Part shown: piece by piece, positions 15,923 to 64,000 of the stretch
Position numbering within the stretch: position 1 is the first letter of the stretch
How the letters are laid out: each line of letters opens with the position of its first letter
Notes under the pieces: model-generated
Seen by the model: only the letters and a program-made list of their open reading frames with translations
The model's database searches: none
Told to the model about the DNA's origin: nothing
Assembly (NCBI GenBank): GCA_036677365.1
Contig: JAVBWN010000030.1
Span: 64,001-128,000, forward strand
DNA length: 64,000 nucleotides
Reading direction: 5' to 3'
Source: Acholeplasma sp.
Lineage (GTDB): Bacteria > Bacillota_I > Bacilli_A > Acholeplasmatales > UBA5453
Made by a program: the position numbers and the translations under genes

Positions 15923-16453
15923 ATGTCATACAAAGCCTATAATGATTATGAACTAATTTATATGGTTCAAGATCAACAGGACATGATGGCTTTAGACATA
16001 CTGTTTACTAAATACGACAAGTTCATACACAAGAAAATCAGCCAGTTCTATATCTTTGATAGTGAACGGGATGATTTTTATCAAGAAGGCTTGATTAGCC
16101 TGCATAAGGCAATCATGTCATTCAAAGACACGTATAATAAAACGTTCATGCGGTATTTCGAAACCGTCTTAGAACGCAAATTCATCAATTTGAATCAAAA
16201 ACGGAAAAGGTATCATCAAGAGATGGATCATTTGGTCAATGAAGCCAAATATATGCCAATTTGTGTTGAAGAAACCCCACCCGAACATTACCAAAAACAA
16301 GTGTTCAAATCCGCTCTAGAAGAGGCGATCTATGACGCCTATTTTAGAGAAAACCAAAAGATTCCCTCGATTGCGAGAACGTATCAACTTGACCCAAAGC
16401 AAGTTTATAACGCTATTTATCGGATTAAGAAAAAGCTAACACAAACACCCTAA
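15923..16453 (+). CDS. sigH: Alternative sigma factor, SigH/ComX-like
   Basis: Region 2 DDFYQEGLISLHKAIMSF; region 4 KQVYNAIYRIKKKL; occupies the rlmB-sigH-rpmG locus. Confidence 0.75.
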   Translation: MSYKAYNDYELIYMVQDQQDMMALDILFTKYDKFIHKKISQFYIFDSERDDFYQEGLISLHKAIMSFKDTYNKTFMRYFETVLERKFINLNQKRKRYHQEMDHLVNEAKYMPICVEETPPEHYQKQVFKSALEEAIYDAYFRENQKIPSIARTYQLDPKQVYNAIYRIKKKLTQTP

Positions 16454-22116: not shown

Positions 22117-25100
22117 ATGGGATATCGTACAGTGCAGTACGGTAAGAAAGCAGTTAGACGCAACTACTCTAAAATGCGTCATGAGATTGAATTGCCAGAT
22201 TTGATCGAGTTACAGACCAAATCATTCGACTGGTTTGTGAATGAAGGGTTAGCAAAATTATTTGAGGACATCTCACCGATCGAATCATATAATGGCGATT
22301 TCAAACTGTACTTTACTAACCACCGTTTTGAAGAACCGAAATACGACATCGTGCAATCGAAAATTCGTGACACCAGTTATTCAAGACCTTTATTTGTTAC
22401 AGTAAGACTTGAAAACGTGATCCAAGGGACCGTTATTGAAAAACAACTATTCATGGGTGATTTCCAGTATATGACACCTGTGGGTACTTTTATCATTAAT
22501 GGTGCTGAACGTGTCGTTGTTTCACAAATTGTCAGATCTGCGGGTGTATATTTCACCAGTGATTTCGACAAAAAGACCAACACTCACCGATATCTATCCC
22601 AAGTTATCCCGACCAGAGGTGCTTGGCTTGAATACGAAATGGGTGCCAAGAACATTTTCTATGGCAAACTAGACAGAAGTAAAAAGGTATCCTTAACCTC
22701 ACTCTTACAAGCATTCGGTTTTGATGGTATCGAAGAAATTAAAAAGCTGTTCCCTACCTACAAGAAGATGTTAGATGAAACCTTCAAGAAGGACGAAAAG
22801 GAAGGCATTTTAAGCTCCGACACGGCCATCGAAGACTTATATTCTAAGCTCAGACAAGGTGAAAAAATCCCTGTGTCCGCGGCAAAAGAATTCGTTCGTA
22901 CCCGTTTATTTGATTCAAGACGTTACGATCTAGAAGAAGTTGGACGTTACAAATTCAAACAAAAGCTGGACATCACACAACGCTTAATGACCATCGCACA
23001 AGGCATTACTGCGCCAAACCAACCAGCGGTTTATAAGTATGCACAAGATGTCATTGACCCTGTGACAAAAGCGGTATTGGTCTCTAAAGATCAAATCGTT
23101 GATGTGGCTTCCGTTGAATTACTCAGCCAACACAGAGATGCATTACGCAAAGTCGTATTATCGAAAGAGTCCAGTCTCCAAAATGAATCCGAAAACGAAG
23201 TGTTCGGTATCAAGACCTCAGACTTATTCGAACAATACGCTAAAGACGACATTTTATACATCCCTGCGGATGCGAAAGAAGCCGGTCTTCTTGTTCCAGC
23301 CAGAACCAAGATTACCCCAGAAATTCGCAACCTCATCTACAAAAACAGAAATAACCTCGTCTTCCAAAAGAAGGACGTCAATGGCAATACTGTGGTTGAA
23401 AAAGACGCTTCTAAAGCGAAATTACTTGTCGACCTCTACGGCAAAATCGACGGCATTTTCCCAATCGAATATGATAGAGAAATTGTGGTTGAACAAAACA
23501 TCGTGAACCTGTTGACCGGTGAAGTCATCGTTGAAGCAGGCACCAAACTCACCCCTGAAGTTAGACAAACGCTACTCGTCAACAGAGAAGGCTTGAACTA
23601 CGCTTCATTGAGATACCTCCGTACATTCATTGACCATGACATCTTGCTTGCGGATGATTCCGTACTCTTCTATGAAGGTACCGAAGTCACCGACGAAGTG
23701 TATTTCCAAATTTATGAAAACAAGCAAAACCTTAAATCCCTTGAGGACTTAAAATACGCCACTGTTTATGCGAAACAAGACATCGATATCCTTGAGGATT
23801 ATCGTAAACATGAATCGGTTGAAAGTCAAAGAGACCATAAACCAATCATCTATTGTGGCTATGAAATCACTGAAGAAAACTTACTTGAACTCCAAATCAA
23901 CCGTAACAAGTTGGATGAAAATGTCATTAAGTATTTCTTGGTTGCTGGTAAGAAGGGCGAATTCTATCGTAAGGAATCACAACGTCGTGCTACCTTCGTA
24001 GAAGTGGTTCAAATCAAAGCAGCGAAAGATTCGAAAGACGATAAAGACATCATTGAACTCATCGGTCACGATTCCCGTGAAACGAGACTACACATCACTG
24101 TATCTGACATCATCGCTTCGATTTCCTATTACTTAAATCTTTATGATGGCGTCGGTAAGATCGATGATATCGACCACTTATCCAACCGTCGTTTAAGATT
24201 GATTGGGGAATTATTGAAGAACCAATTCAGAATCGGTTTGGCGAAACTTGAAAAGAACATCAAAGACAAGATGTCGACAGCCGATGCGAAGGAAGCTTCG
24301 TTACAATCTTTAATCAACATCAAACCGTTGACTGCTTCGTTGAAAGAATTCTTCGGCAGCTCTCAATTGTCACAATTCATGGATCAAATTAACCCACTCG
24401 CTGAGTTAACTCAAAAACGTAGAGTTTCCGCTTTAGGTACAGGTGGTCTTGCGAGAGACCGCGCTGGGGTAGAAGTTCGTGACGTTCATGAGTCTCACTA
24501 TGGCCGTATTTGTCCAATTGAAACCCCAGAAGGTCCATCGATCGGTCTGATCTCATCCTTAGCAAGCTATGCGAAAGTCGACCAATATGGATTCATTCAA
24601 ACCCCATACTTAAAAGTGGATAAGTCAGACCCTGAACATCCATTTGTAACTTCAGAATATGTCTACTTTACCGCAGGTGAAGAAGAACATCACATCATCG
24701 CATCTGCCGACTCTCAAACCGATGAGTTTGGTCATTTCAAGACCGAAACTGTCATCGGACGTTTCATGGGAGAAACACGTTCTTACCCATCGAAGAAAGT
24801 CGATTTCATGGACGTTTCACCTAAACAAATCGTTTCGGTTGCGACCTCATCCATCCCATTCCTAGAACACGATGACGCCTCCCGTGCCTTGATGGGCGCG
24901 AACATGCAACGTCAAGCCGTACCACTGCTTGTACCAGATTCACCAATCGTAGGTACAGGTATTGAATACCGTTCCGCCAAGGACTCCGGTAGTGCGATTG
25001 TAGCGCATGTTGACGGTGTTGTTACTTACGCCGATGCGAGAAAAATTGTCATCGCCGTTAAACCAGAAGCATCGATTAAGACCACCAGAGGTAAACTTGT

Positions 25101-26574
25101 ATATGACAAGGATGCTGAATTCAACTGGGAAGCTTATGACCAAATTCGTCAAGCTAAAATGACCGATTTGTTGCGCTTTGAAACTTACACACTCACACAA
25201 TTCTTACGCTCTAACCAAGATACCTCCATCCTTCAAAAACCAATCGTTCAAATTGGTGAAAAGATTGAAAAAGGTGATGTCATCGCCGATGGTCCATCGA
25301 TCAATAAAGGTGAACTTGCGCTTGGTAGAAACGTCGTGGTCGCGTTCATGACCTGGGAAGGTTATAACTACGAAGACGCCGTCATCATGAGTGAAGATTT
25401 GGTTAAAAACGACGTGTATACTTCAATCCATATCGATGAACACCAAGTGGAATCTCGCGATACCAAATTAGGTAAAGAAGAGATCACCAGAGAAATTCCA
25501 AACGTATCTCCAGATGCGCTTAAATTCCTAGACGACCGTGGGGTTGTGATCCCAGGGACTGAAGTCAAAGAAGGCGACATCCTAGTAGGTAAGATTACAC
25601 CTAAAGGACAAACCGAACCGACCCCAGAGGAAAAACTCCTTCAAGCCATTTTCAATGAAAAGGCGAGAGAAGTGAGAGATACTTCCTTGAAAGTACCTCA
25701 TGGCGGTGGTGGTATTGTTCATTCCATCCAATATTTCAGCAAAGGCAACGGCGATGAACTTGGGCCTGGCGTCAATGAAGTGATCCGTGTTTATATCGTG
25801 AAAAAACGCAAAATCTCCGAAGGGGATAAGATGGCGGGACGTCACGGTAATAAAGGGGTTATCTCGAAGATTCTACCAAGAGAAGACATGCCTTACATGG
25901 CAGACGGTACACCGGTTGACATCATGTTAAACCCACTTGGGGTACCATCTCGTATGAATATCGGACAAGTCTTAGAAATCCATTTAGGTATGGCAGCTAA
26001 GAAACTTGGCATCAAAGTTGCGACACCAGTCTTTGACGGTTTAACCCAAAAAGACTTAGAAGAAGTCATGGCAGAAGCAGGCATGTCTCCAGATGGCAAA
26101 CAAGTACTCTATGATGGACGTACGGGTGAACCTTATGAAAACAAAGTATCTGTAGGTGTCATGTACATGATCAAACTTTCACACATGGTTGACGATAAGC
26201 TCCATGCGCGTTCTGTCGGTCCTTACACTTTAGTTACCCAACAACCAATGGGTGGTAAAGCTCAAAACGGGGGACAACGTTTCGGGGAAATGGAAGTTTG
26301 GGCACTCTATGCTTATGGTGCAGCACATACCCTTAAAGAAATTCTTACCGTTAAGTCAGATGACATCATCGGACGTAACAAAGTATACCGTGCGATTACC
26401 GATGGTAAACCAATCCCAGATTCACACATTCCAGAATCCTTCCGCGTATTGACCAGAGAATTACAATCCTTGGGTCTTTATGTCGAATTAATCGATGCTG
26501 AAACGGGCGAAAATGAGGTTAACAAGTCATTGGTCGATCAATCCAATCCATTCGAACGTAAAGGGGGATTCTAA
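22117..26574 (+). CDS. rpoB: RNA polymerase beta subunit with large insertion
   Basis: [57 protein letters not shown]. Confidence 0.99.
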
Positions 26575-26577
26575 TAT

Positions 26578-29500
26578 ATGGCAAAAGATAACAAAAAAGT
26601 GTCCATTGTAGATTTAAAATTATCTGCAGAAACCACAGAATACCTAACCCTTTCGGGGATCGATACCTTAGAAGATTTCAATACATTCACACTTAAAGAA
26701 TTGCGTTTACTTTTAAAGACAGATGCGGCTTTTAACGAAGTCGTGCCTGTCTTAAAGAAGTACGTATTGCCAAGTGCTGTTGAAAACCTAGCCCTCTCTA
26801 AAGAATTAGAAAGAGCTTTAAATGAACTCGGTATTGTTGAAACGAAAGCCTTATTGGCATTATCTAAAGAAGCCCTTCATGACATCATTAATCATGACGG
26901 ACTCTTATACGACGAACTTGCGAAATTATTTAATATGTATGGCGTAGTGCTTCCTGAAAAAGAAGCGTTGGTCCATGACCACCACCATGCAGATGATTTG
27001 GTCCAAGACGTTGAAGCTGAAACCCACATCAACACCCCAATCAGTGTCGATGCGTATGTCAAAGCAGCTCAAGCAAAACCTAAAAACAAAGCGTATGGGT
27101 CAACCGACTATTCCCACTTAAAGATCAGATTGGCTTCTCCAGATGAAATTCGTTCTTGGAGCTATGGTGAAGTTTTAAAACACGAAACCATCAACTATAG
27201 AACCTTAAAACCTGAAGAAGGCGGTCTATTCTGCGAACGTATTTTCGGTCCAACCAAAGATTATCAATGCCTATGTGGTAAAAAACGTAACTTGGACAAA
27301 GGTCAAATCTGCGACAAGTGCGGCGTTGAAATCACAGAATCCAAAGTCAGAAGAGAACGTATGGGACACATCGAACTCGAAGCCCCAGTCGTACACACTT
27401 GGTACTTAAAGAACTCCCCTTCAAGATTGGCTTTATTACTCGATATTAAAGCGAAAGACTTAGAAGAAGTTGTTTATTTAGCAAGCTACATCGTCACTGA
27501 CCCAGGGGATACCCCATTGTCGAAGAAACAAATTCTTTCGGAAATGGAATACAACCAATACTACGAACAATATGGCAATAAGTTCAAAGCGATGACTGGT
27601 GCAGAAGCCGTTAAAAAGCTTTTACAAGACATCGATTTAGACAAAGAAGTGAAGTCGTTAAGACGTAAACTTAAATCCCCATCGAAACAAAAACGTGACC
27701 GTGTCATCAAGAGACTCGAAGTCGTTGAAGCCTTCAACAATTCAGACAACAAACCTGAATGGATGGTATTAGACGTACTGCCAGTCATCCCACCAGACAT
27801 TCGTCCGATGGTTGCTTTGGATGGTGGTCGTTTCGCAACTACCGACTTAAACGACTTGTATCGTCGTATCTTAAACCGTAACAACCGTCTCAAACGTCAA
27901 AAAGAACAAAATGCGCCACGCTTAATTATGAAGAATGAAAAGCGTATGTTACAAGAAGCGGTCGACGCTTTGATTGATAACGCTAAACGTGGTAAGAAAG
28001 CCGTTGTTGAAAGAAATAGACACTTGAAATCCTTATCCGATATGCTTCGTGGTAAGCAAGGTCGTTTCCGTCAAAACTTACTTGGTAAACGCGTGGACTT
28101 CTCAGGTCGTTCCGTCATCATCGTCGGACCAGACCTTGAAATGTACCAATGTGGTATCCCAAGAGAAATGGCGATCATTTTATTCAAACCATTCGTTTTA
28201 AGAGAACTCACCAAACGTAAAGAAACCATCCAAGCGGCTAAACGTTCCTATGAAGCATTAGATGATGATGCATGGAGCGCATTAGAAGCGGTTGTTGTAG
28301 AACATCCAGTGTTGTTAAACCGTGCGCCAACCCTCCACAGACTTGGGATTCAAGCCTTTGAACCTAAATTAATTGAAGGTAAAGCAATCCGTCTACACCC
28401 ACTCGTTACAACGGCGTTCAACGCAGACTTTGACGGTGACCAAATGGCGGTCCACGTCCCACTTTCTCACGAAGCACAAGCCGAAGCGAGATTGTTGATG
28501 TTGGCTTCCAATAACATTTTGAACCCTAAAGATGGTAAACCGGTCGTTACCCCATCTCAAGATATGGTCTTGGGCAACTACTACTTAACCATGTCCAAAC
28601 GCAATGAACCAAACGAAGGTCATTTCTATACCGGTTACGATGAAGCTTATATGGCTTATAAAAACGGTGAAATTACCCTCCATACTTTAATTGTGTTTGA
28701 TCCAAAAACCTTACCACATGCGTTCACTGAAGCACAAAGAAATGCGTATTTAGTCACCACACTCGGTAAGGCGATATTCAACCAAATCTTACCACCAAGC
28801 TTCCCATTTTTAAACGAACCAAGTTCATCGAACTTAGTCGATAAAACACCAGACAAATATTTCATTAAGAAAGGTTTAAATGTCAGAGAACTCATCAAAG
28901 AGATGCCTCTACCTAAACCATTCGATAAGAAGTATTTATCCTTAATCATTGCGGAAGTATTCAAACAATTCCAAATCAATGAAACTTCGAAGATGCTAGA
29001 CCGTTTGAAAGACCTTGGATTCAAATATTCTACCGTGGCTGGTATTACCGTATCGGCTTCTGACATGGTCGTTTATACCAAGAAACAAGAACGTCTAAAA
29101 CAAGCCGAAGAGAAGATTGCTGAAATCGACGAATACTTTGATGATGGCGTCCTTACCGAATCTGAACGTAAAAAATTGGTTGTCAACGAATGGAAAGTCG
29201 CTGGGGAAGATATTCAAGCGGGCGTCATGAGCGAGTTCGACACCACCGGTCAATTATTCATCATATTTGACTCCGGTGCGCGTGGTAACAAATCGCACTT
29301 CTCGCAATTACTTGGTATGCGCGGTCTGATGACCAACCCTACCGGGGAAACCATTGAAATCCCAGTTAAAGCAAACTTTAGAGAAGGTCTATCTGTATCC
29401 GAATTCTTTATTTCCACCCACGGTGCGCGTAAAGGTTCGACCGATACCGCGTTAAAGACCGCGGAATCGGGTTACTTGACCAGACGTTTAGTTGACGTTT

Positions 29501-30696
29501 CACAAGACGTGATCGTTGACCTAGAAGATTGCCAAACCGAAAAAGGTGTTGTCATGGAAGCCATCCGTGACAATGACGGAAAAGAAACGGTTGCTTTATT
29601 CGACCGTATCATTGGCCGTTATGCATCCTCACCGGTGATTCATCCAACCACCAAAGAAGTCTTAGTCGACCGTAACCAACTCATCACCAATGAACTTGGC
29701 GAAGTGGTCGTTAAAGCAGGCGTGAAGTCTGTTGAAATCCGTAGCGTCCTCACATGTAATTCTGTCAATGGCGTATGTAAACTATGCTATGGTAGAAACC
29801 TCGCAACCAACAAATCTGTGGAAGTTGGGGAAGCCGTTGGGGTCATCGCTGCACAATCGATTGGTGAACCAGGTACGCAGTTAACCATGCGTACATTCCA
29901 CACGGGTGGGGTTGCTTCGGCATCCGACATCACCGCCGGTCTCCCACGTATTCAAGAATTGTTCGAAGCACGTAAACCTAAAGGGGTCTCTGTGATCTCT
30001 GAAGTTGCGGGTAAAGTTCGAATGATTGAAACGTCTAAGGCAGGCTCCGTGGTAACCATCGTTTCTGACCAAACACAAAATGGTGAACCGAAAGAATACA
30101 AATATACGTTAGATTCCAGTGCTCAACTCTTAGTGAAGAAGAACCAAGTCGTCAAGGCTGGGGATCGTCTAAACAAGGGTTCAATCCATCCGAAAGAATT
30201 ACTCCGCGTATCTTCTGCGGAAGCGGTTGAAAAATACATCGTTGAAGAAGCTCAAAAAGTATACCGTGCTCAAGGGGTAGAAATCAGCGATAAGCACTTC
30301 GAAATCATCGTGCATCAAATGCTTAGAAAGATTTCTGTCATATTTGAAGGCGACACCGAATTACTCCCAGGTTCGAAGGTTTCTATCGCAGAATTTAAAG
30401 CTGCCAACAAGAAGGCCATCGCTGCTAGATTACGTCCTGCAGTGGGTCAACCTGAACTCTTGGGTATTACCCGTGCTTCCTTACAAAGCGACTCCTTCTT
30501 ATCCGCTGCATCCTTCCAAGAAACGACACGTATCCTTACAGACGCTGCTATTCACGGCAAGACCGATGAATTGCACGGCTTAAAAGAAAATGTCATCATT
30601 GGTGGCTTAATCCCAGCAGGTACAGGTATCCTCAAAGACAAGTACTTCCACTACGAAGAACCGGTCATTGATGACGAAGAATTCGAACAAGCGTAA
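26578..30696 (+). CDS. rpoC: RNA polymerase beta' subunit with N-terminal extension
   Basis: NADFDGD, Zn finger [33 protein letters not shown]. Confidence 0.99.
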
Positions 30697-37222: not shown

Positions 37223-38002
37223 ATGACATTCAGCAGCATGTTATTTAAAATCGAAACGGGTCAACCATTAAACGATAAAAGCATAGAAAAATTAGCCAAA
37301 AAAATGTATTTAGCGCCTTCATCTGCACGCAGTTTTCTATACACTTTGTGGCTTTTAACTATTTTATTGTTTTTGGCCCTCGCAGCTGTGGACGGATTAA
37401 AACCGGTCTCGCCACTCGTTGTTTATGTATTCGCCGTCGGATTATTGATTGGATTGATTCTATATGCAATATTGCCAAAATACATCCGTATTCACCAATA
37501 CTTGAACGCTGTAGATACTTTTTATGAAACCAAGTTCAGTGGACTAGATCATTATGATTTATACTATATCGGGCAACACCGTTCACCACATGTTCGAACA
37601 CTCAAATCCAACAAAATTTATCTTTTGACCGATGGACATCACTTGCTATTTATCGACGATTATTTTAAGGATACTAAGTACCAGTTACCACGTATATTTA
37701 GCGCAGATAAACCTGTTAATTTGCGTGTGATCGACGCTGAAAAAAACGATCAATCACGTGTCTTAATTGACATATCTGAGGTTGAACACTACGTATCATC
37801 GAAGCGTGATTTACCTCTCAATAAAAAACCATTGAATCCAAAATATCAACGCATATTTGAAACATTTTTAGATCAAGATCCACACATGGATGAACAATAC
37901 TTCGTCACCCTAAAACTTTATAATGGCGCGGTTTTCCGATTAGGATATGACGCCTATAAAGCACTCAAATTTGCGATACCACTAAAGGATAAAACACGAT
38001 GA
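37223..38002 (+). CDS. Hypothetical membrane protein (2 TM + soluble domain)
   Basis: AGGAGG RBS; two hydrophobic helices; in operon with neighbours. Confidence 0.7.
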   Translation: MTFSSMLFKIETGQPLNDKSIEKLAKKMYLAPSSARSFLYTLWLLTILLFLALAAVDGLKPVSPLVVYVFAVGLLIGLILYAILPKYIRIHQYLNAVDTFYETKFSGLDHYDLYYIGQHRSPHVRTLKSNKIYLLTDGHHLLFIDDYFKDTKYQLPRIFSADKPVNLRVIDAEKNDQSRVLIDISEVEHYVSSKRDLPLNKKPLNPKYQRIFETFLDQDPHMDEQYFVTLKLYNGAVFRLGYDAYKALKFAIPLKDKTR

Positions 38003-39642: not shown

Positions 39643-42078
39643 ATGAGAAGGATTATTGCACTGCTATTATCGATTGCAGGATTGATTACAGCGGGCATCA
39701 TTGCTTATCAACACGGCGCATTCAACAATATGGATTTCGTTCTATACTATGCCATCATAATGGCGTTTTTTGGCGCGATTGTCGTATCGATTGAATTTAT
39801 TTTAAACCACAACCGTAAACAAAAGATCAAATCGCTCAATGCCCGATTGACCGCGTGGTCGAGTTTGTCATACCATGTGAAGCAAATTGGCGATGAAGCC
39901 TTTAATGAACTACCCATTGGGATTTTTCTTTATGACAACGATAATTTCACAGTCAAATGGAGTAACCCATTCGCCAATAAAATTTTCGGTTTTGACATCG
40001 AAAACGCCTTGGTTGGTCAACTTCATGAAAGCTTAGGTAGTTTGATTAAAGACCAAGCATCGGTGACCACATTTGCTGTAGGGGATAAGCGTTATGACGC
40101 CATCAGCAGCAAGAATAACCAAGCTGTTTATTTGTTTGATGTGACTTCTCGTGAAGATATCAAAGACAAATACCTCAAACGATCCACCGCATTCGGTGTC
40201 ATTTATCTCGATAACGTTGAAGAAGCATTGTCGGGATTCGATATTTATGAAAAATCCAATATCCGCGGTGAATATCTAGGGATCATCACCGACTGGATTC
40301 AAGAACACAAAGGGTATATTAAATTGTATACCGAAGACCGCATGACCATTGCTATGCACTATGAAGAACTACAAAAAGTGATGGCCAATAAATTTGAAAT
40401 ATTGAACCGCATTCGTGAGGTGTCAGCAAAACACCGCATCCGTATTTCAGCGTCCATCGGGATTGCCTGTTGGGAAGTTTCATTCGAAGAGTTGGGGACA
40501 CTCGCTCAAAATGCCATTGAACTCGCCGAAAAACGTGGTGGGGACCAAGCGGTTGTCAATATTCAAAATGAGAAGATCGCTTACTTCGGTGGTAAATCCA
40601 ACGCTTCTGAAAAGAGTTCAAGGGTACACGTTCGTATTCAATCACAAAACTTTAGAGAACTCATCGAAGCATCCTCTAACGTCGTCATCATGGGCCATAA
40701 GTTTGCGGATATCGATGCTTTAGGTGCAATGATTGGGGTCTTTAAAATGGCTTCTGCTTCTAAAAAAGAAGTGAAGATCGTATTTGACATCCCTGAAGTG
40801 GACAACACCGTTAAAAAAATCGTGCCATACTTAAAAGAAGAATCACCACATTTATACACACAACTCGACGAGTCCAAGAATATTTTAAAATTCATGAACA
40901 ATGACACCTTACTTGTCATCGTCGACACACAATCACCCAACATCGTCGCCAATCAAGAAGTATACAAACAAGCGAAGAAAATCGCATGTATTGACCACCA
41001 CAGACATGGTGAAAATACGTTTGAATCGATTTTTACTTATGTAGAACCATACGCATCATCCTCCGTTGAGTTGGTCGCAGAAATGATGGAGTTTTATCAA
41101 AAAGACATCGATTTATTACCCATTGAAGCAACCATCATGTATGGTGGAATCATCGTCGATACCAACGAATTCTCCTATCGAACCGGGACCAGAACGTTTG
41201 GTGCAGCCGCTTATTTGAAAGAACATGAAGCCTCTTCTGTACGTGTCAAAGAGTGGTTAAGACTCGATTTGGACCGCACATTATTGATCAACGAATTACT
41301 CAATAATGTTCAAGTCGTTACCAAAGGATTTGCTGTGGTCGTAGATGAGTCAAATGTGGTTAGAGACCGTGTTTTACTTGCCCAAACATCACAAAAAATC
41401 CTTGAGATTGAAGGTGTGAAGGCAGGCTTTACGATTGCGAGGGTCGATGAGGAATCGATTGGTATTTCCGCACGCAGTTATGATGAAATAAACGTCCAAA
41501 TCATCATGGAAGAATTGGGCGGTGGCGGTCACTTGAACAGTGCTGCTACACAAATTAAAAATCAAACGATTCCAGAAGTGTTTGAATCGTTGAAGACGTT
41601 GCTCTTAAGAGAACACGAAGAGGGAGATGAAAGAATGAAAGTAATATTAACAGAAGACGTTAAAGGCAGAGGTAAAAAGGACGACATCATCGATGTAGCG
41701 AATGGCTATGGTACATTCCTACTATCTTCAAGTAAAGCAATCCTTGCTTCGGATGAAAATATCAAAGCCATCGAAAAAGAAAAACAACTCATCAAAGAAC
41801 GCGAAGCTGAACACCTCGCCCTTATGAATAAGTTGAAACAAGAAATTGAATCCAAATCCGTCAACATCTTTATCAATATTGGTAATGATGGGAAATTGTT
41901 CGGTAGTGTAACCACCAAACAAATCGTCGAATCTTTTGAAGAACAAACCGGCATCCGATTGGATAAGAAGAAAGTTGAATTGACCTCCGAAATCAACTCT
42001 GTCGGTATTTATACAGCAACCGTATCGTTACACAAGGAAGTTAAAGCACAATTTGAAATCAATGTATTAGAGAAATAA
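39643..42078 (+). CDS. gdpP-rplI: GdpP-type c-di-AMP phosphodiesterase fused in frame to ribosomal protein L9
   Basis: 2 TM, PAS-like, degenerate GGDEF, GH..DIDALG, VDT, DHH, GGGH; then MKVILTEDVKGRGK..VANGY..GKLFGSVT (L9) with no intervening stop. Confidence 0.93.
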   Translation: MRRIIALLLSIAGLITAGIIAYQHGAFNNMDFVLYYAIIMAFFGAIVVSIEFILNHNRKQKIKSLNARLTAWSSLSYHVKQIGDEAFNELPIGIFLYDNDNFTVKWSNPFANKIFGFDIENALVGQLHESLGSLIKDQASVTTFAVGDKRYDAISSKNNQAVYLFDVTSREDIKDKYLKRSTAFGVIYLDNVEEALSGFDIYEKSNIRGEYLGIITDWIQEHKGYIKLYTEDRMTIAMHYEELQKVMANKFEILNRIREVSAKHRIRISASIGIACWEVSFEELGTLAQNAIELAEKRGGDQAVVNIQNEKIAYFGGKSNASEKSSRVHVRIQSQNFRELIEASSNVVIMGHKFADIDALGAMIGVFKMASASKKEVKIVFDIPEVDNTVKKIVPYLKEESPHLYTQLDESKNILKFMNNDTLLVIVDTQSPNIVANQEVYKQAKKIACIDHHRHGENTFESIFTYVEPYASSSVELVAEMMEFYQKDIDLLPIEATIMYGGIIVDTNEFSYRTGTRTFGAAAYLKEHEASSVRVKEWLRLDLDRTLLINELLNNVQVVTKGFAVVVDESNVVRDRVLLAQTSQKILEIEGVKAGFTIARVDEESIGISARSYDEINVQIIMEELGGGGHLNSAATQIKNQTIPEVFESLKTLLLREHEEGDERMKVILTEDVKGRGKKDDIIDVANGYGTFLLSSSKAILASDENIKAIEKEKQLIKEREAEHLALMNKLKQEIESKSVNIFINIGNDGKLFGSVTTKQIVESFEEQTGIRLDKKKVELTSEINSVGIYTATVSLHKEVKAQFEINVLEK

Positions 42079-47192: not shown

Positions 47193-48428
47193 ATGAAAAA
47201 ATTAGATCGAACACCGTTTAATATGGACAAAAAACCCGTCAAAGAAAGACGTGTTTTAATGCCTCTGGCTTGGGCTTTGTCATTTCCATCCACTTGGAAA
47301 AGAAAACTAAAAGTCAACAAGGTAGATATGGAAGGATTAAAACCACCCTATCTGCTTTTGTGTACGCACCACGCATTCATCGATTTTAAAGTAACCACCG
47401 TCGCAACCTTCCCGAGAAGATTGAATTGGGTTGTGGCCATCGATGGTTTCTTGTTTGGAGAATACTTACTCAGAAGTGTAGGTGCCATCTGTAAACGAAA
47501 ATTCATCAATGATTTAAAGTTGGTAAAACACATTAAATATGTCTTTGAAGAACTCAATGGCATTGTGGCTTTATACCCTGAAGCACGGTATTCTTTGATT
47601 GGGACGACGTCGATTTTACCGGATTCTTTAGGCAAGTTATGTAAGATGCTTAATGTACCGGTCGTTGTATTAAACATGCACGGGAACTATTTGACCCAAC
47701 CACAATGGAATCTAGACATGCGTCATGTACCACTGGCTGCAGATATGACACAAATCATTTATCAAGATGAACTCAAAGATTTATCGGTAGATGTCATCAA
47801 TGAACGCATCCGTAAAGCCTTTGAATACGATGAGTACCAATGGCAAAAAGACAACAAAATAAAAATTGATTTCAAGGACCGTATGAAAAATATACACAAG
47901 GTCTTGTATCAATGCCCTAGTTGTTTAACGGAGCACCAAATGAATAGCGCTGAGAATCGCATCTGGTGTGAAGCTTGTGGTAAAACCTATGAACAAGACT
48001 TATATGGTGTCTTAAAAGCCACCACAGGGGAAACAGAGTTCTCACACATCCCGGATTGGTATGAATTTGAACGCGAACAAGTCAAAAAGCAAATCCTTGA
48101 AGGCACTTACCGTATCGAAGATGAAGTTAGAATTGAGTCTTTACCGAATGCGAAAGGTTTCCATGTGCTAGGCGATGGTAAAATGGTTCACGATACACAT
48201 GGATTCTGGATCACTGGGGATTTTGATCCGAATTTTGATTTGATCCGAGAACCGCTTTCTTTATATGGATTACACATCGAATATAACTATAAAAACCGTG
48301 GAGATGCCATAGATATCTCAACCACCGATGACTCTTATTGGATTTTCCCAAAAACCAAAAAAGACATCGTCACCAAACTCCATTTTGGGGTCGAAGAACT
48401 CTATAAATTGGCAAAGAAAAAGGGCTAA
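47193..48428 (+). CDS. PlsC-like acyltransferase with C-terminal Zn-ribbon
   Basis: THHAFID (HX4D), YPEARY, CPSC..CEAC. Confidence 0.8.
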   Translation: MKKLDRTPFNMDKKPVKERRVLMPLAWALSFPSTWKRKLKVNKVDMEGLKPPYLLLCTHHAFIDFKVTTVATFPRRLNWVVAIDGFLFGEYLLRSVGAICKRKFINDLKLVKHIKYVFEELNGIVALYPEARYSLIGTTSILPDSLGKLCKMLNVPVVVLNMHGNYLTQPQWNLDMRHVPLAADMTQIIYQDELKDLSVDVINERIRKAFEYDEYQWQKDNKIKIDFKDRMKNIHKVLYQCPSCLTEHQMNSAENRIWCEACGKTYEQDLYGVLKATTGETEFSHIPDWYEFEREQVKKQILEGTYRIEDEVRIESLPNAKGFHVLGDGKMVHDTHGFWITGDFDPNFDLIREPLSLYGLHIEYNYKNRGDAIDISTTDDSYWIFPKTKKDIVTKLHFGVEELYKLAKKKG

Positions 48429-53120: not shown

Positions 53121-54311
53121 ATGAAAAAGAGATTTAGACATGTTTTATTATACACGCTTTTAAGACCATTGTTTAGAATTATTGTGTGGTTTAGGTATCG
53201 ATTCATTGGAAGAAAATACAAAGGCCCAGCCAAAGGACCTTATTTAATCTTGGGTAATCACACCGTCAACTGGGACCCGATACTGTTGGCTATGAGTTTT
53301 AGAGAACCGATTTATTATGTCGCTTCTGACATGTTGTTTTCTATCCCAGTCATTTCCAAAATCCTGTATTACTTGGTTCAACCCATTTCTAAATCCAAAT
53401 ATAAAGCCGATACAGAAACGGTAAAAAATATGATCAAAGTTGCGCGTTCAGGCGGGTCTATTGGTATATTTCCAGAAGGCAACCGCACGTTTTCAGGACG
53501 CATCATGTACATGCCTTACTCCATATCGAAATTGATCAAACTCCTCAAACTACCCGTATTATTTTACCGCTTAGAAGGTGGTTATTTGACCAGTCCAAGA
53601 TGGGCTGTACACAACAGAAGAGGTAAGATGCGGGGCTATGTCAAAACCACATGGACCTATGAGGAATATAAAGATTTATCCAACGATGAAATCTATCAGT
53701 TTGTTGTCGACCAATTGTCTGTCAATGACTTAGATATGCAAATGGCTAACCCCCGAAGATTCCGTGGGAAACATTACGCTGAATACATCGAACGTGCTTT
53801 CTTCGTCTCCCCAGTCACCGATCGCATTGGTACGATTTATTCTGATAAAGACGATATTTTCGAGCATGGGTCAAATCTTCACTACCGGATGAATTCCTAT
53901 GGTTTAATTGACAATATCGGGCCGACCAAATATTATCCAAATACCATTTTGTGGTACGATCATCAAGTCAAAGTTGTAGAGGATTTGATTGATCAAAAAG
54001 TAGATACACCGCTATTTGAAGAAAATGCGAAAGCATATGAACTCTTAAAACGAAAACAAATACCATTGTCCGATTCGCACATGGTTTTATATACAGATCG
54101 TTTCACCTTTACAATCCAAGGGGAAGTTCAAACCTGGTTTTACAAGGATATTTTGCCAGCTGTACAATATTCACACACACTCATCGTTTATCACAAAGAA
54201 CTGGTTAAGACCTATTTCTTTGTTGGTGATGAACGATTCAATGCATTAAAATACGTGATGTTTGCGAAAACATATCAAAGGAGGGTTCTAAACTATGATT
54301 CAGAACTATGA
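53121..54311 (+). CDS. PlsC-like acyltransferase
   Basis: NHTVNWD (HX4D), IFPEGNR, PRW. Confidence 0.8.
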   Translation: MKKRFRHVLLYTLLRPLFRIIVWFRYRFIGRKYKGPAKGPYLILGNHTVNWDPILLAMSFREPIYYVASDMLFSIPVISKILYYLVQPISKSKYKADTETVKNMIKVARSGGSIGIFPEGNRTFSGRIMYMPYSISKLIKLLKLPVLFYRLEGGYLTSPRWAVHNRRGKMRGYVKTTWTYEEYKDLSNDEIYQFVVDQLSVNDLDMQMANPRRFRGKHYAEYIERAFFVSPVTDRIGTIYSDKDDIFEHGSNLHYRMNSYGLIDNIGPTKYYPNTILWYDHQVKVVEDLIDQKVDTPLFEENAKAYELLKRKQIPLSDSHMVLYTDRFTFTIQGEVQTWFYKDILPAVQYSHTLIVYHKELVKTYFFVGDERFNALKYVMFAKTYQRRVLNYDSEL

Positions 54312-55731
54312 GTCTTTCGCTACGTGGGGTGCCATTATTTATTTCCTTATTTTGTCGGTGCTATTGTTACTAGGTAATGTCATCAGACGCAAGATTCCCC
54401 TATTTAAAAAGTCATTATTGCCAACAGCGGTCATCGCAGGGTTAATCGGCTTAATCATTAAAGAAGTTGTATTTCGACCACTTTCTGTGAATGGCACTTT
54501 ACCGGTAGATTCGGTCGTCAAATTTAACCAATTTTTAAACCTCATTACTTATCATACGTTAGGTTTGGGTTTCATTGCGATGGGGTTAAAAGTGAATGAA
54601 AAATTCGAAATTAAGACCAATCGTAGCCACGCCTATTACAATGGTATGGTCATTGTATCGACTTATTTATTACAAGGTGTCATCGGGATTGCGATGACAT
54701 TGTTGTTCGCTTATACATTCATGCCTGCCTTTAAATCGGGTCCAGGGCTCGCAACCGGCATTCTATTGCCCTTTGGTTTTGGACAAGGCCCAGGTCAAGC
54801 CAATAACTTTGGGATCATCTATGAAACCTTTGATCCAAATGGTTTTGTGGGTGGGCAGTCCTATGGTTTAGCCATGGCATCGATGGGGTTCATTTGGGCA
54901 GCCATTGGTGGGGTATTCTATCTTAACCGTGTTCAAAAGAAACGCGTAAAAGGTGAAGAAATGGCACCACAAATGACTTCAATTCAAGAAATCAGTGCAC
55001 CAGATGAAATTCCTGTGGCAGAATCGATTGATAAACTGACCGTTCAAATTGCCCTCATCGTAACCGTCTATGGGTTAACTTTATTGACCATGTTTGGTCT
55101 TTCTCGTCTGGTTGCACTCAATGAAACGACCTACCGTATGCTCAATTCCTTGATTTGGGGATTTAACTTCATCTTCGGTATGGTGATTGCCTTGTTATCC
55201 AAAAAGTTCTTTGTTTATTTACGTAAAGTGGGTTGGATGACCAGACAATATCCAAATAACTTTATGTTAAATCGTATTGCTGGCGTGGTCTTTGATTTGA
55301 TGGTGGTGGCATCCATCACCGCGATCAATATGGAAGACTTATCCCAAAATAATATATGGATTGCTTTCTTATTGATTTCTTCTGTGGGTGGTGCAATCAC
55401 CATGTATTACCTACATCATTTAACCAAACGCGTGTATCAACAATACCCATTGGAGGCTTTTTCTGCGATGTATGGTACTTTAACAGGCACAGCATCCACA
55501 GGGATTGCCTTGTTACGTGAAGTTGACCCTTACTATAAAACACCAGCGGCTACAGATTTGGTCACCGGAACCACAACCGCCATCTTATTTGGCTTGCCAA
55601 TTCTCTTGATTGCTTCCTATGCCCCACAAGGCATTACCCAGTCAATCATCTCATTGGTTATCCTCACTGTATTGTTCGCCCTATTTGCAGGATTCTTATT
55701 TAAGAAGCACTCATTGAAGAAGAAGGCATAG
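54295..55731 (+). CDS. Sodium/glutamate symporter family (GltS-like)
   Basis: LPTAVIAG, GFGQGPGQ, GTLTGTASTGIALLR..DP; about 12 TM segments. Confidence 0.8.
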   Translation: MIQNYESFATWGAIIYFLILSVLLLLGNVIRRKIPLFKKSLLPTAVIAGLIGLIIKEVVFRPLSVNGTLPVDSVVKFNQFLNLITYHTLGLGFIAMGLKVNEKFEIKTNRSHAYYNGMVIVSTYLLQGVIGIAMTLLFAYTFMPAFKSGPGLATGILLPFGFGQGPGQANNFGIIYETFDPNGFVGGQSYGLAMASMGFIWAAIGGVFYLNRVQKKRVKGEEMAPQMTSIQEISAPDEIPVAESIDKLTVQIALIVTVYGLTLLTMFGLSRLVALNETTYRMLNSLIWGFNFIFGMVIALLSKKFFVYLRKVGWMTRQYPNNFMLNRIAGVVFDLMVVASITAINMEDLSQNNIWIAFLLISSVGGAITMYYLHHLTKRVYQQYPLEAFSAMYGTLTGTASTGIALLREVDPYYKTPAATDLVTGTTTAILFGLPILLIASYAPQGITQSIISLVILTVLFALFAGFLFKKHSLKKKA

Positions 55732-61489: not shown

Positions 61490-64000
61490 TTAGTTTTGAT
61501 GAGGGAAACTTGTCCACCAGTCACCATAAATCTCATTGAATTCGACATTGTCAAAGACATAGGAGAAGAATTGGTCTTGGTTGATTTGAACTAATCTTTC
61601 AGCTTTAGCGTTGTTTGCAGCGCTTGCAAAGTTGTAGTTAGTTGAATCTAACAATCTATATAGTAAGTTTAATTGGTTTTGAGAACCCGTGTACTTAGCA
61701 TAGATTGGAGCGAAGTATGCAGTGATTGCAGTAGATACGCTTGAAGGTAAGTTTTCAACACCGTATTCAGAATCTTTTTCATTTAAGTAAATTTGAATTT
61801 GATTAGCAGAAATTGCATCGGTATCACTATAGGCATTTAGGTAATACTTGTTACCTTCAGCATCTGTGTATTCGATTCTTTCATAAATCATGTATTCATC
61901 GGTATCTTTAGCTTTAGAGTCATCATCAGCAGTAAATTTAGCGCTGCTAGCAACAGATCCACCTGTAGCTAAGATTAAGTGCCAACCGAATGCAGTTTCT
62001 AATACTTGCGCATAGTCTGCTGGGGAAGCTTGTAACCATTGGCTAGGGAAACTCTTGTTTGCGTCGTATTCAGCTCTAACTTGTGCATAAATTTCTTTTG
62101 CACCTGCATAGAATGCGTCATCTAATTTAGATGTAGAACCGATGGTATTTGTGGAGTTAGTAATTGCGGATAAGTTTTCAAACTTGAGGTTCAAACCAGC
62201 CGCTTTATAGGATGACCATCTGCATTCTGCAGTGACATCTAGTGGTGGAACTGTACAAGATTGAGGTGCAATTCTACCTGCAGTATTGAATTCTTCAACA
62301 ATGGCATTTAAACCAGTTGAAATCGAAGAATAAGTCAATGCTCTGTCGTGGATTAATACCATGAATTCAACCAATAAGTCTTGGAAGTCAGCTAATTTAG
62401 CAGCATCTAATGTTTCGAAGTATTCAGAAGGATCATCTGGTTTATCGTCTTCATTCATATCGATATAAACCAATAAATGAGAGGATGATAATGAGAAGAA
62501 TTGGTCTCTTAAGCGGTTTGCATAATCAGCGAAAGTCGCATAAATGGTATCACCGTATTGTGCTTCAAGGTCTTTGAGGTAAGCATCTTCTAATGCAGCA
62601 GCGACATAAACGTTTTGAATTGCTTCATCGATTGATGTTGCACGGAATGCCAACATTAAGAAGTTCTTTCTACCCATCGAAGCTGGATATCCAGACGATG
62701 CGTAGTAGTCTTGACCAAATTGTTTGATGATGGTTTCAATATTCTTACGATATTCAGCTCTCTTTTCAGCTGTAATGGTATCAACATAATCAGAAGCTTT
62801 CAATGTTTGACGGATAGCCATATCGATTGCTACTGAGACGCCAAGTCTCTTTTCAAGTTGTGCGTAGAATGCATCTACAGTGATGTCGTTACCCTCAACT
62901 TTTGCAATTAAAGTCTTGCTGGATTTAGAAGCAAGTTTAACTTCCTTAAAGCTTTGAGCTAAGTATAGTTGAACAAGTTCGTCATAAATAACGATATCAG
63001 CTTTATTAAGTCTTTCAGTTGCCTTGGTGGAGATATAAGAGGTTGTAAGTTTAGCTTCTAATACTTTGTCATAAATTTCTTCTGCTTTTTCAGTCAATTG
63101 ACCAGCTTCATCATAGACGATGAAATTCTTGTCTTCATCCATCCACTCTAAAACGGCTTCATTGTGGTCTTTAAGCTTGTAAACTAAGAAGTAGTTAGAA
63201 CCACTTAAGCGTGGGCTTGCTGTAAATCTGGTTTCACCTTCAGCGGTTCCAAGTGTGTTGTAAATATAAGTACGTAGGCTTGTGTTTGTGAAGTCTTCAT
63301 AAGCTCTTGTAAATGGAACGTTGTCCAAATCAGCTAGAATGCCATCAACAGTGTAGTTTGTATTTACTTGATCACGGAAACTGTAGATATAGTTGTAAAT
63401 TTCTAAGAATTTGACGAGTGTTTCATCTTGTGTTAATGCAACATCGGAATCAGAACCCGCATCTGGATTGATGGAGTATTTGTCGTAGTATTTACGATAA
63501 TCTGCTTCACTGATTGAACCAGTATTTGAGATACCAAGTTCAGTTAATGTTGTTGCTGCACGTCCAGTTACCACACTTACTCTTGGGTCTTGGAGTACAT
63601 ATAATTGGCTTCTATAAGCCTTTAAGTTAAATCTACGTAATGTTGCGTTTGCTTCATTAAGGTTTACGAAACGAATGGTGATTGCACTCACATCGTAATT
63701 GTTTTTAACGTTGTTGTTAAAGTAAGTAGCTAGATCTTTGTCGATGTTGATAAAGCTTGTAGATTTGCTGTCTTTAACTTCTTCAATAAGAAGGGTTCTT
63801 GCATAAATCTTTTTAGCAACGTTAAGTTTGTAGTAGTCTAGAATATCAGAACTGTGGTTTTCAAAGTCAACGATGTCGATATCGCCTTCTGCAACAGTTG
63901 AGTTAGCTAGATAGAATGAATCCACGAATGATTTCACTTTTGTGCTAATCGTTTTCGCATCATATTCTTTAAGTGTTTCTATATCTGAAGTACCGAAAAT
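61490..64000 (-). CDS. Large PrsA/parvulin-like foldase, N-terminus beyond window
   Basis: Frame is open to base 64000; LIAKVEGNDITVDAFY, SSHLLV, LDDAF, ETAFGWHLI; convergent with yhaM. Confidence 0.6.
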   Translation of the reverse strand: MFGTSDIETLKEYDAKTISTKVKSFVDSFYLANSTVAEGDIDIVDFENHSSDILDYYKLNVAKKIYARTLLIEEVKDSKSTSFINIDKDLATYFNNNVKNNYDVSAITIRFVNLNEANATLRRFNLKAYRSQLYVLQDPRVSVVTGRAATTLTELGISNTGSISEADYRKYYDKYSINPDAGSDSDVALTQDETLVKFLEIYNYIYSFRDQVNTNYTVDGILADLDNVPFTRAYEDFTNTSLRTYIYNTLGTAEGETRFTASPRLSGSNYFLVYKLKDHNEAVLEWMDEDKNFIVYDEAGQLTEKAEEIYDKVLEAKLTTSYISTKATERLNKADIVIYDELVQLYLAQSFKEVKLASKSSKTLIAKVEGNDITVDAFYAQLEKRLGVSVAIDMAIRQTLKASDYVDTITAEKRAEYRKNIETIIKQFGQDYYASSGYPASMGRKNFLMLAFRATSIDEAIQNVYVAAALEDAYLKDLEAQYGDTIYATFADYANRLRDQFFSLSSSHLLVYIDMNEDDKPDDPSEYFETLDAAKLADFQDLLVEFMVLIHDRALTYSSISTGLNAIVEEFNTAGRIAPQSCTVPPLDVTAECRWSSYKAAGLNLKFENLSAITNSTNTIGSTSKLDDAFYAGAKEIYAQVRAEYDANKSFPSQWLQASPADYAQVLETAFGWHLILATGGSVASSAKFTADDDSKAKDTDEYMIYERIEYTDAEGNKYYLNAYSDTDAISANQIQIYLNEKDSEYGVENLPSSVSTAITAYFAPIYAKYTGSQNQLNLLYRLLDSTNYNFASAANNAKAERLVQINQDQFFSYVFDNVEFNEIYGDWWTSFPHQN

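Follow-up and report, generated by a model that had tools for sequence, protein, structure and literature searches.

Two tandem α-CTD-like domains at the N-terminus of RNA polymerase β′ in Acholeplasma and its relatives

The gene for the β′ subunit of RNA polymerase (rpoC) in a 64-kb stretch of DNA from Acholeplasma sp. (contig JAVBWN010000030.1, positions 64,001 to 128,000; referred to as the window) encodes ~176 residues ahead of the canonical β′ core, which are made up of two ~58-aa units, an acidic and partly His-rich linker and a short basic tail. The two units are very probably real, translated domains with the fold of the RNA polymerase α subunit's C-terminal domain (α-CTD), and they are found throughout a clade of related RpoC proteins. 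Bacterial RNA polymerase is regulated largely via its flexibly tethered α-CTDs, and an α-CTD fold that has been copied twice onto another core subunit, there without the DNA-contacting residues, represents a natural experiment in the rewiring of contacts between the polymerase and its factors. To our knowledge, the transcription machinery of this wall-less group has been little studied, and the domain pair of the extension, being small and foldable, is a concrete object for pull-downs and structural studies in such bacteria.

Fold, family and inheritance of the extension

An earlier note on this DNA, which was made from the sequence alone, had described two similar units and a His-rich stretch in front of β′, and the strings that it quoted are found at residues 9-42 (SIVDLKLS...LKEL), 67-100 (AVENLALS...KEAL) and 133-139 (HDHHHAD) of the window protein. 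Comparison of unit 1 with unit 2 of this protein by BLASTP gave no alignment, and the claimed similarity is borne out at the level of family profiles, as the profiles of the two units, drawn from 85 homologues, were aligned by hhalign with a probability of 95.7% and an E-value of 8.6e-9 over 57 columns. The relationship to the α-CTD likewise emerges from profiles. With an alignment of 24 representatives of the extension that are mutually <62% identical (alignment A2), hmmsearch against the PDB sequences returned 20 hits at E<=1, of which 18 are RNA polymerase α subunits, the best being the Thermus α-CTD (1doq_A, E 1.6e-4); unit 1 is matched in some of the PDB hits and unit 2 in others, and it is profile positions 3-60, in unit 1, that match the Thermus domain. 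The Pfam family RNA_pol_A_CTD (PF03118) was matched at E<=0.01 by 14 of 24 diverse family members (best 1.3e-6), and 3 of 120 related clusters bear an automatic PF03118 label, hence databases already recognise the domain in part.

The AlphaFold2 model computed on A2 has a predicted local distance difference test score (pLDDT) of ~96 for residues 10-100, and of <60 for most of residues 130-177. When it was compared with the PDB by Foldseek, the 12 top-ranked matches were, by description, all α chains or isolated α-CTDs. The best of them, the Bacillus subtilis α-CTD (1z3e_B), gave a template modelling (TM) score of 0.81 (target-normalised), a root-mean-square deviation of 1.7 Å, 63 columns and a probability of 1.00. 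A feature search of the ESM Atlas returned only leads below 0.9, PF03118 clusters among them, and was not used as evidence. The claim of the earlier note that β′ carries covalently tethered modules of an α-CTD or helix-hairpin-helix (HhH) type is supported by the profiles, the AlphaFold2 model, the Foldseek ranking and a reverse profile search. By their profile homology to solved α-CTDs and their compact helical fold with two HhH motifs the units fall within the α-CTD family; their location is not that of the family, as they lie at residues 6-123 of β′, in an open reading frame (ORF) without an α N-terminal domain.

The remainder of the extension is less regular. Linker lengths range from 11 to 46 aa over the 85 homologues, and the tail, in which the model predicts a helix (residues 157-165) at low confidence, is conserved: in A2, G174 and S175 do not vary, and K171 is found in >=90% of the sequences. 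The His-rich character of the linker that had been pointed out is present in the window rpoC (5 His, HDHHH), but varies across the family, as HxH occurs in 49 of the 85 carriers and 24 have no His there. A metal site conserved across the clade, for which the His cluster was a candidate, is therefore ruled out.

The distribution of the extension was determined in a sample of 121 RpoC proteins, comprising the query and the 120 best relatives of its core. Of the 121 proteins, 85 have an extension, which is 156-188 residues long, and 36 have none; two of these 36 are P0067, a partial record, and P0105, whose sequence starts 12 residues ahead of the core. A comparison of RpoC N-termini across relatives had been proposed in the earlier note, and, among the relatives sampled, it makes the extension a family-wide trait that is not special to this genome. 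Among the named carriers are Paracholeplasma manati, P. brassicae, Alteracholeplasma palmae, Acholeplasma hippikon and several metagenome-assembled genomes (MAGs) of Acholeplasmataceae, while MAGs labelled Izemoplasmatales and Erysipelotrichales are among the named non-carriers. In a FastTree phylogeny inferred from the core alone (118 rows, with the partial rows P0030, P0067 and P0106 dropped), a branch with support 100 separates all 83 carriers from 34 rows, none of which has the extension. The carriers' side of this branch includes a single protein without the extension, P0105, which is nested among carriers, and the presence of the extension needs two changes on this tree, compared with a mean of 30 when the trait is shuffled.

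The negative control consisted of 80 rpoC loci, drawn from further Bacillota and from other phyla; no Acholeplasmatales are included in this set, and the whole-protein search that yielded it is dominated by the universal ADFDGDQM motif. In none of these loci does the match to the window protein reach further towards the N-terminus than query residue 161, and a hidden Markov model (HMM) of the extension matched within 5 kb of none of the 80; tblastn of residues 1-128 against a phage collection gave no match. The extension is thus in frame, conserved in the clade and absent outside it, as expected of a lineage-specific β′ addition. As judged from the core tree, it is a vertically inherited add-on with a single gain, specific to the clade of Paracholeplasma, Acholeplasma and Alteracholeplasma RpoC, and since it marks this whole clade it could serve as a molecular signature. 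Among carriers the mean pairwise identity is 0.56 for the two domains and 0.80 for the core (3403 pairs), which suggests that the extension domains evolve faster than the core, yet are clearly constrained.

Charge of the units and their free-standing relatives

In the α-CTD, R265, which is the minor-groove arginine, and the G296-S299 hairpin contact UP-element DNA. When the two units are aligned with the Escherichia coli α-CTD from the K-12 record, R265 is replaced by E18 in unit 1 and by E76 in unit 2, and G296-K297-K298-S299 falls in a gap, so that the 265 determinant, that is Arg265 together with the basic G-K-K-S hairpin, is missing from both. Over the 85 carriers, the R265 column is acidic (E or D) in 64 for unit 1 and in 84 for unit 2 (E in 77, D in 7). 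The mean net charges are -2.5 for unit 1, -7.4 for unit 2, -6.4 for the linker and +2.7 for the tail; each unit is net negative in all 85 sequences, with maxima of -1 (unit 1) and -4 (unit 2), and the charge of the linker spans -1 to -12. Both statements of the earlier note on this point, namely that the units are acidic and that they lack the UP-element arginine, agree with these data, and their capacity to bind UP-element DNA looks lost.

Further relatives of the extension were collected with the A2 profile, which matched 203 proteins at E<=0.001 among 1.84 billion representatives. Among the best 150 of these 203, PF03118 is found at E<=1e-4 in 65 of the first 100 and at E<=1e-10 in 45 of the next 50; four RpoC fragments and no canonical RpoA are included in these 150, as well as a few leucine-rich-repeat proteins, which look like false positives. 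The hits were grouped by length, score and eye into RpoC fragments and short proteins, mollicute-like paralogues, and the rest.

Many bacterial proteins within P0134-P0272 consist of 2-11 tandem PF03118 units, some of them in combination with sigma-70 region 4, HARE-HTH, helicase or helix-turn-helix (HTH) domains, and we know of no described role for proteins of this type. Their existence as free-standing proteins indicates that the α-CTD fold is a mobile module. Of 328 units in these other multi-α-CTD proteins, 192 have R or K at the R265 column and 30 have E or D, and as the basic residue is retained in most of them, the charge reversal appears to be a specific trait of the β′ module.

A smaller set of AT-rich, mollicute-like proteins (P0127, P0130, P0131, P0136, P0149, P0154 and P0184) carries a two-unit module that closely resembles the β′ extension. 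P0131 matches the A2 profile at E 2e-31, 16 of the 20 units of these proteins have E or D at the R265 column, and three of the proteins, of ~1000-1100 aa, also bear a sigma-70 region 4-like domain.

A proposed docking role and its alternatives

The overall reading that we favour, and consider somewhat probable, is that the extension is a permanently tethered, acidic pair of α-CTD-fold domains that acts as a protein-docking platform in the manner of the acidic repeats (AR) of NusA. The earlier note had already suggested NusA-like protein docking, which is a reasonable idea. Docking as the function of the extension, taken by itself, is put forward tentatively and by analogy, its chances falling a little short of even. 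The acidic pair would retain at the polymerase a basic partner, which could be the enzyme's own α-CTD, the NusG N-terminal domain (NTD) or a lineage-specific regulator, and any one of these, named singly, would be a doubtful choice at best. The pair would stay attached permanently and work like NusA AR1-AR2, without binding of UP-element DNA. For NusA, one study gives binding of AR2 to the α-CTD (dissociation constant, KD, <5 uM), to the NusG-NTD (KD 24 uM) and to the RNA-binding region of NusA itself (PMC4937328).

The disordered acidic tether of ~30 residues and the basic tail of ~20 residues would allow the pair to sweep the zone of sigma region 4, the α-CTDs, NusA (at the flap) and NusG (at the clamp). 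The β′ N-terminus presumably adjoins the β C-terminus, on the RNA-exit and upstream face of the enzyme, and such a placement, together with the length of the tether, means that the pair could reach these factors. It agrees with the models of fused β/β′ families, in which the β′ part aligns from residue 176 of the window protein; natural β-β′ fusions are noted in a 2024 survey of β and β′ domain architectures (PMC11515920). A complex prediction for the pair (A2, residues 1-128) with the α-CTD of B. subtilis as a stand-in scored 0.00 and counts neither way.

A more specific form of the docking reading, which is unlikely, is that of a charge-reversed 'anti-α-CTD', in which the β′ pair reversibly captures the enzyme's own α-CTDs or NusG on the upstream and RNA-exit face, and proteins of the P0131 type in the same lineage, which combine the same module with a sigma region 4-like domain in ~1000 residues, compete for the site. 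If true, this would amount to a clade-specific regulatory circuit of repurposed α-CTD folds, in which the job of NusA AR2 has moved into a core subunit.

Several points weigh against the favoured reading. The 175 residues of the window protein score 21.4 bits (E 2e-4) with PF03118, below the curated gathering cut-off of 23.8, and in a phmmer search of the PDB sequences the same 175 residues, used alone, reached no significant match (best E 0.23, α-CTD 0.51). None of the 297 Foldseek matches has an E-value <=0.001 and those of the top matches are >=0.26, as is expected for helical domains of 60 residues. The placement of the β′ N-terminus comes from general background and not from computation, and rpoA, which would show whether the true α-CTD is retained, does not lie in the window. 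Neither an HHH_5 nor a NusA family match was obtained at E<=10, and no NusA chain is present among the Foldseek matches listed; the units share with NusA AR1-AR2 the tandem acidic HhH pair and no specific kinship in sequence or structure. Since the units are closer in sequence to the α-CTD than to the NusA acidic repeats, the parallel with NusA is one of analogy and not of kinship.

Alternatively, the acidic pair and its tether could be a nucleic-acid mimic or self-inhibitor that shields basic DNA- or RNA-binding surfaces, and thereby curbs non-specific binding or gates the entry of promoter or RNA. Region 1.1 of sigma-70 and, in Firmicutes, the acidic tail of the delta subunit are presumed to shield polymerase surfaces of this kind. 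The strongly negative charge, above all of unit 2 and the linker, would suit such a role, as would the predicted disorder of the tether (pLDDT 49-58) and the Glu in place of the DNA-contacting Arg, which reverses the charge of the former DNA face. However, two well-folded, conserved domains exceed the needs of a mimic, the linker is variable both in length (11-46 residues) and in charge, and no computed result puts the module in a nucleic-acid channel, so a mimic is possible but unlikely.

Somewhat less likely again is a structural or assembly role, in which the pair docks on a lineage-specific surface of its own enzyme, for example a large insertion in β, and stabilises it or aids its assembly. 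That rpoB in the same operon encodes 1485 aa with a gap of ~360 residues in the lobe region, that the β′ N-terminus adjoins the β C-terminus according to the fusion families, and that the core-proximal tail is conserved are all in line with this idea, but a tether that is predicted to be disordered and that varies in length suggests a mobile module. An AlphaFold2 model of residues 1-350 gave a pLDDT of 57-66 for the tail, with no gain in confidence for tail or linker, which speaks in the same direction, although the fragment was modelled poorly (mean pLDDT 66) and this is weak evidence.

The least likely of these functional alternatives, and an improbable one, is that the units are extra DNA-binding α-CTDs, which would make upstream promoter contacts, either UP-element-like or to the backbone via HhH motifs, and add to or replace the α-CTDs. 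Both their fold and their family point to a DNA-binding domain, the first hairpin retains S-G-I (G27 is invariant, S26 and I28 are found in >=90%) and the point of attachment presumably faces upstream DNA, but the acidic R265 column, the loss of the basic hairpin and the net negative charge of all units argue against it, and with R or K at this position in most units of the related multi-α-CTD proteins the change in β′ looks specific.

Finally, it is very improbable that the extension is absent from mature β′, be it through a downstream start, an annotation artefact or post-translational removal. The observation in its favour is P0105, an RpoC of 1222 aa named as that of Acholeplasma granularum, which begins just before the core, but because this record is nested among carriers, its start was probably set too far downstream. 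The reading frame of the extension is open, its conservation at the protein level covers 85 clusters, the carriers share a conserved MAK(D/E)K start and the fold is predicted with confidence. In addition, the ATG is preceded by an SD-like (Shine-Dalgarno-like) site, and in-frame ATG, GTG and TTG codons are lacking both between rpoC codons 141 and 185 and in the 44 codons ahead of the core motif, so that translation could begin near 27090 only at a non-canonical codon; the sequence itself is compatible with removal by proteolysis. For annotators, this places the true rpoC start ~170 codons upstream of the core.

Gene layout and comparison with known systems

The window contains the usual block secE-nusG-rplKAJL-rpoB-rpoC-rpsLG-fusA-tuf, and the coordinates of the features discussed above are given in Table 1. 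Between the rpoB stop and the rpoC ATG lie 3 bases (TAT), so that the A of the ATG is the fourth base after the stop, as the earlier note had it. The canonical β′ start after ~170 aa was also placed correctly in that note, since the core motif is found at residue 177 (nt 27106), Pfam Rpb1_1 aligns from residue 179 and TIGR02386 (rpoC) from residue 181 (residues 181-1355, 1708 bits). Overall, the rpoC protein is 98% identical to a cluster named Paracholeplasma manati RpoC.

Table 1. Features of rpoB and of the rpoC reading frame (nucleotide positions of the window; residues of the window β′ protein)
Feature	Position	Strand	Basis and remarks
rpoB (β, 1485 aa)	22117..26574	+	ORF list, translation, Pfam Rpb2 domains 1, 2, 3, 45, 6, 7; TAA stop 26572-26574
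Shine-Dalgarno-like AAAGGGGGA	26560..26568	+	read from sequence; lies within the last codons of rpoB, 9 nt upstream of the ATG of rpoC
rpoC (β′, 1372 aa)	26578..30696	+	single unbroken ORF of extension and core
Unit 1 (residues 6-64), α-CTD-like double helix-hairpin-helix	26593..26769	+	best PF03118 stretch 4-42, unit-HMM envelope 6-64, pLDDT ~96
Unit 2 (residues 65-123), second, more acidic α-CTD-like domain	26770..26946	+	profile positions 65-120 match α subunits (8dkc, 2max, 6wmp); pLDDT 83-96
Acidic linker (residues 124-154) with HDHHHAD at 26974-26994	26947..27039	+	pLDDT 49-58
Conserved mildly basic tail (residues 155-176, I-S/D-V-x-x-Y-V ... K-x-Y-G-S)	27040..27105	+	alignment A2; joins extension to core
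Canonical β′ core (residues 177-1372)	27106..30693	+	Pfam Rpb1 domains 1-5

The rpoB gene is unusually long. Pfam Rpb2_1 covers residues 29-739 of its product, the best Rpb2_2 stretch ends at residue 288 and Rpb2_3 starts at 753; these limits point to roughly 360 inserted residues, specific to the lineage, in the lobe region.

Elsewhere in the window, the ORF at 39643-42078 (811 aa) encodes a GdpP-type c-di-AMP phosphodiesterase (PAS, GGDEF-like, DHH and DHHA1 domains) that is fused in frame to ribosomal protein L9, with no stop between ...REHEEGDER and the typical L9 start MKVILTEDVKG; L9 may be made here both as a fusion and from its own ATG. A gene for a small sigma factor (15923-16453, 176 aa), with region 2 as the only part detected (E 5e-6), is flanked by the gene for an rRNA methylase and by secE-nusG, which is where sigH is found in Bacillus. 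Four long ORFs are without a Pfam match at E<=1e-5, namely 61490-63937 (- strand, 815 aa), 54295-55731 (478 aa), 47193-48428 (411 aa) and 37223-38002 (259 aa).

With respect to known systems, the β′ units have the same fold as the RNA polymerase α-CTD and a detectable kinship to it, both in sequence (Thermus) and in structure (B. subtilis), and in each case a small helical domain is flexibly tethered to the polymerase. In contrast to the α-CTD, they are located at the N-terminus of β′ and not at the C-terminus of α, form a tandem pair, have R265 and G296-S299 replaced or deleted, and are net negative. The nearest sequence relatives outside RpoC are the multi-α-CTD repeat proteins, with 2-11 PF03118 units each, but these are free-standing, unlike the β′ module, and as a further difference R or K is retained at the R265 column in most of them.

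The extension adds domains to a subunit that is conserved universally, and does so in one clade only, in which it resembles other lineage-specific insertions and fusions of the large subunits. The 2024 survey of β and β′ describes insertional BEAN and HABAS domains (PMC11515920), from which the extension differs in being a terminal addition made from the domain of another subunit. By term search, the survey contains no mention of Acholeplasma, Tenericutes, helix-hairpin-helix or CTD (PMC11515920), and a 2026 review of α-like subunits none of Acholeplasma, Mollicutes, 'fused' or 'CTD-like'; in the full-text literature, with subscription-only papers outside its scope, no description of α-CTD-like domains on β′ was found. 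The closest functional analogue of the β′ pair is NusA AR1-AR2, which likewise consists of two tandem acidic domains of the HhH type held near the RNA exit, with the difference that NusA is an exchangeable factor, whereas the β′ pair is built into a core subunit.

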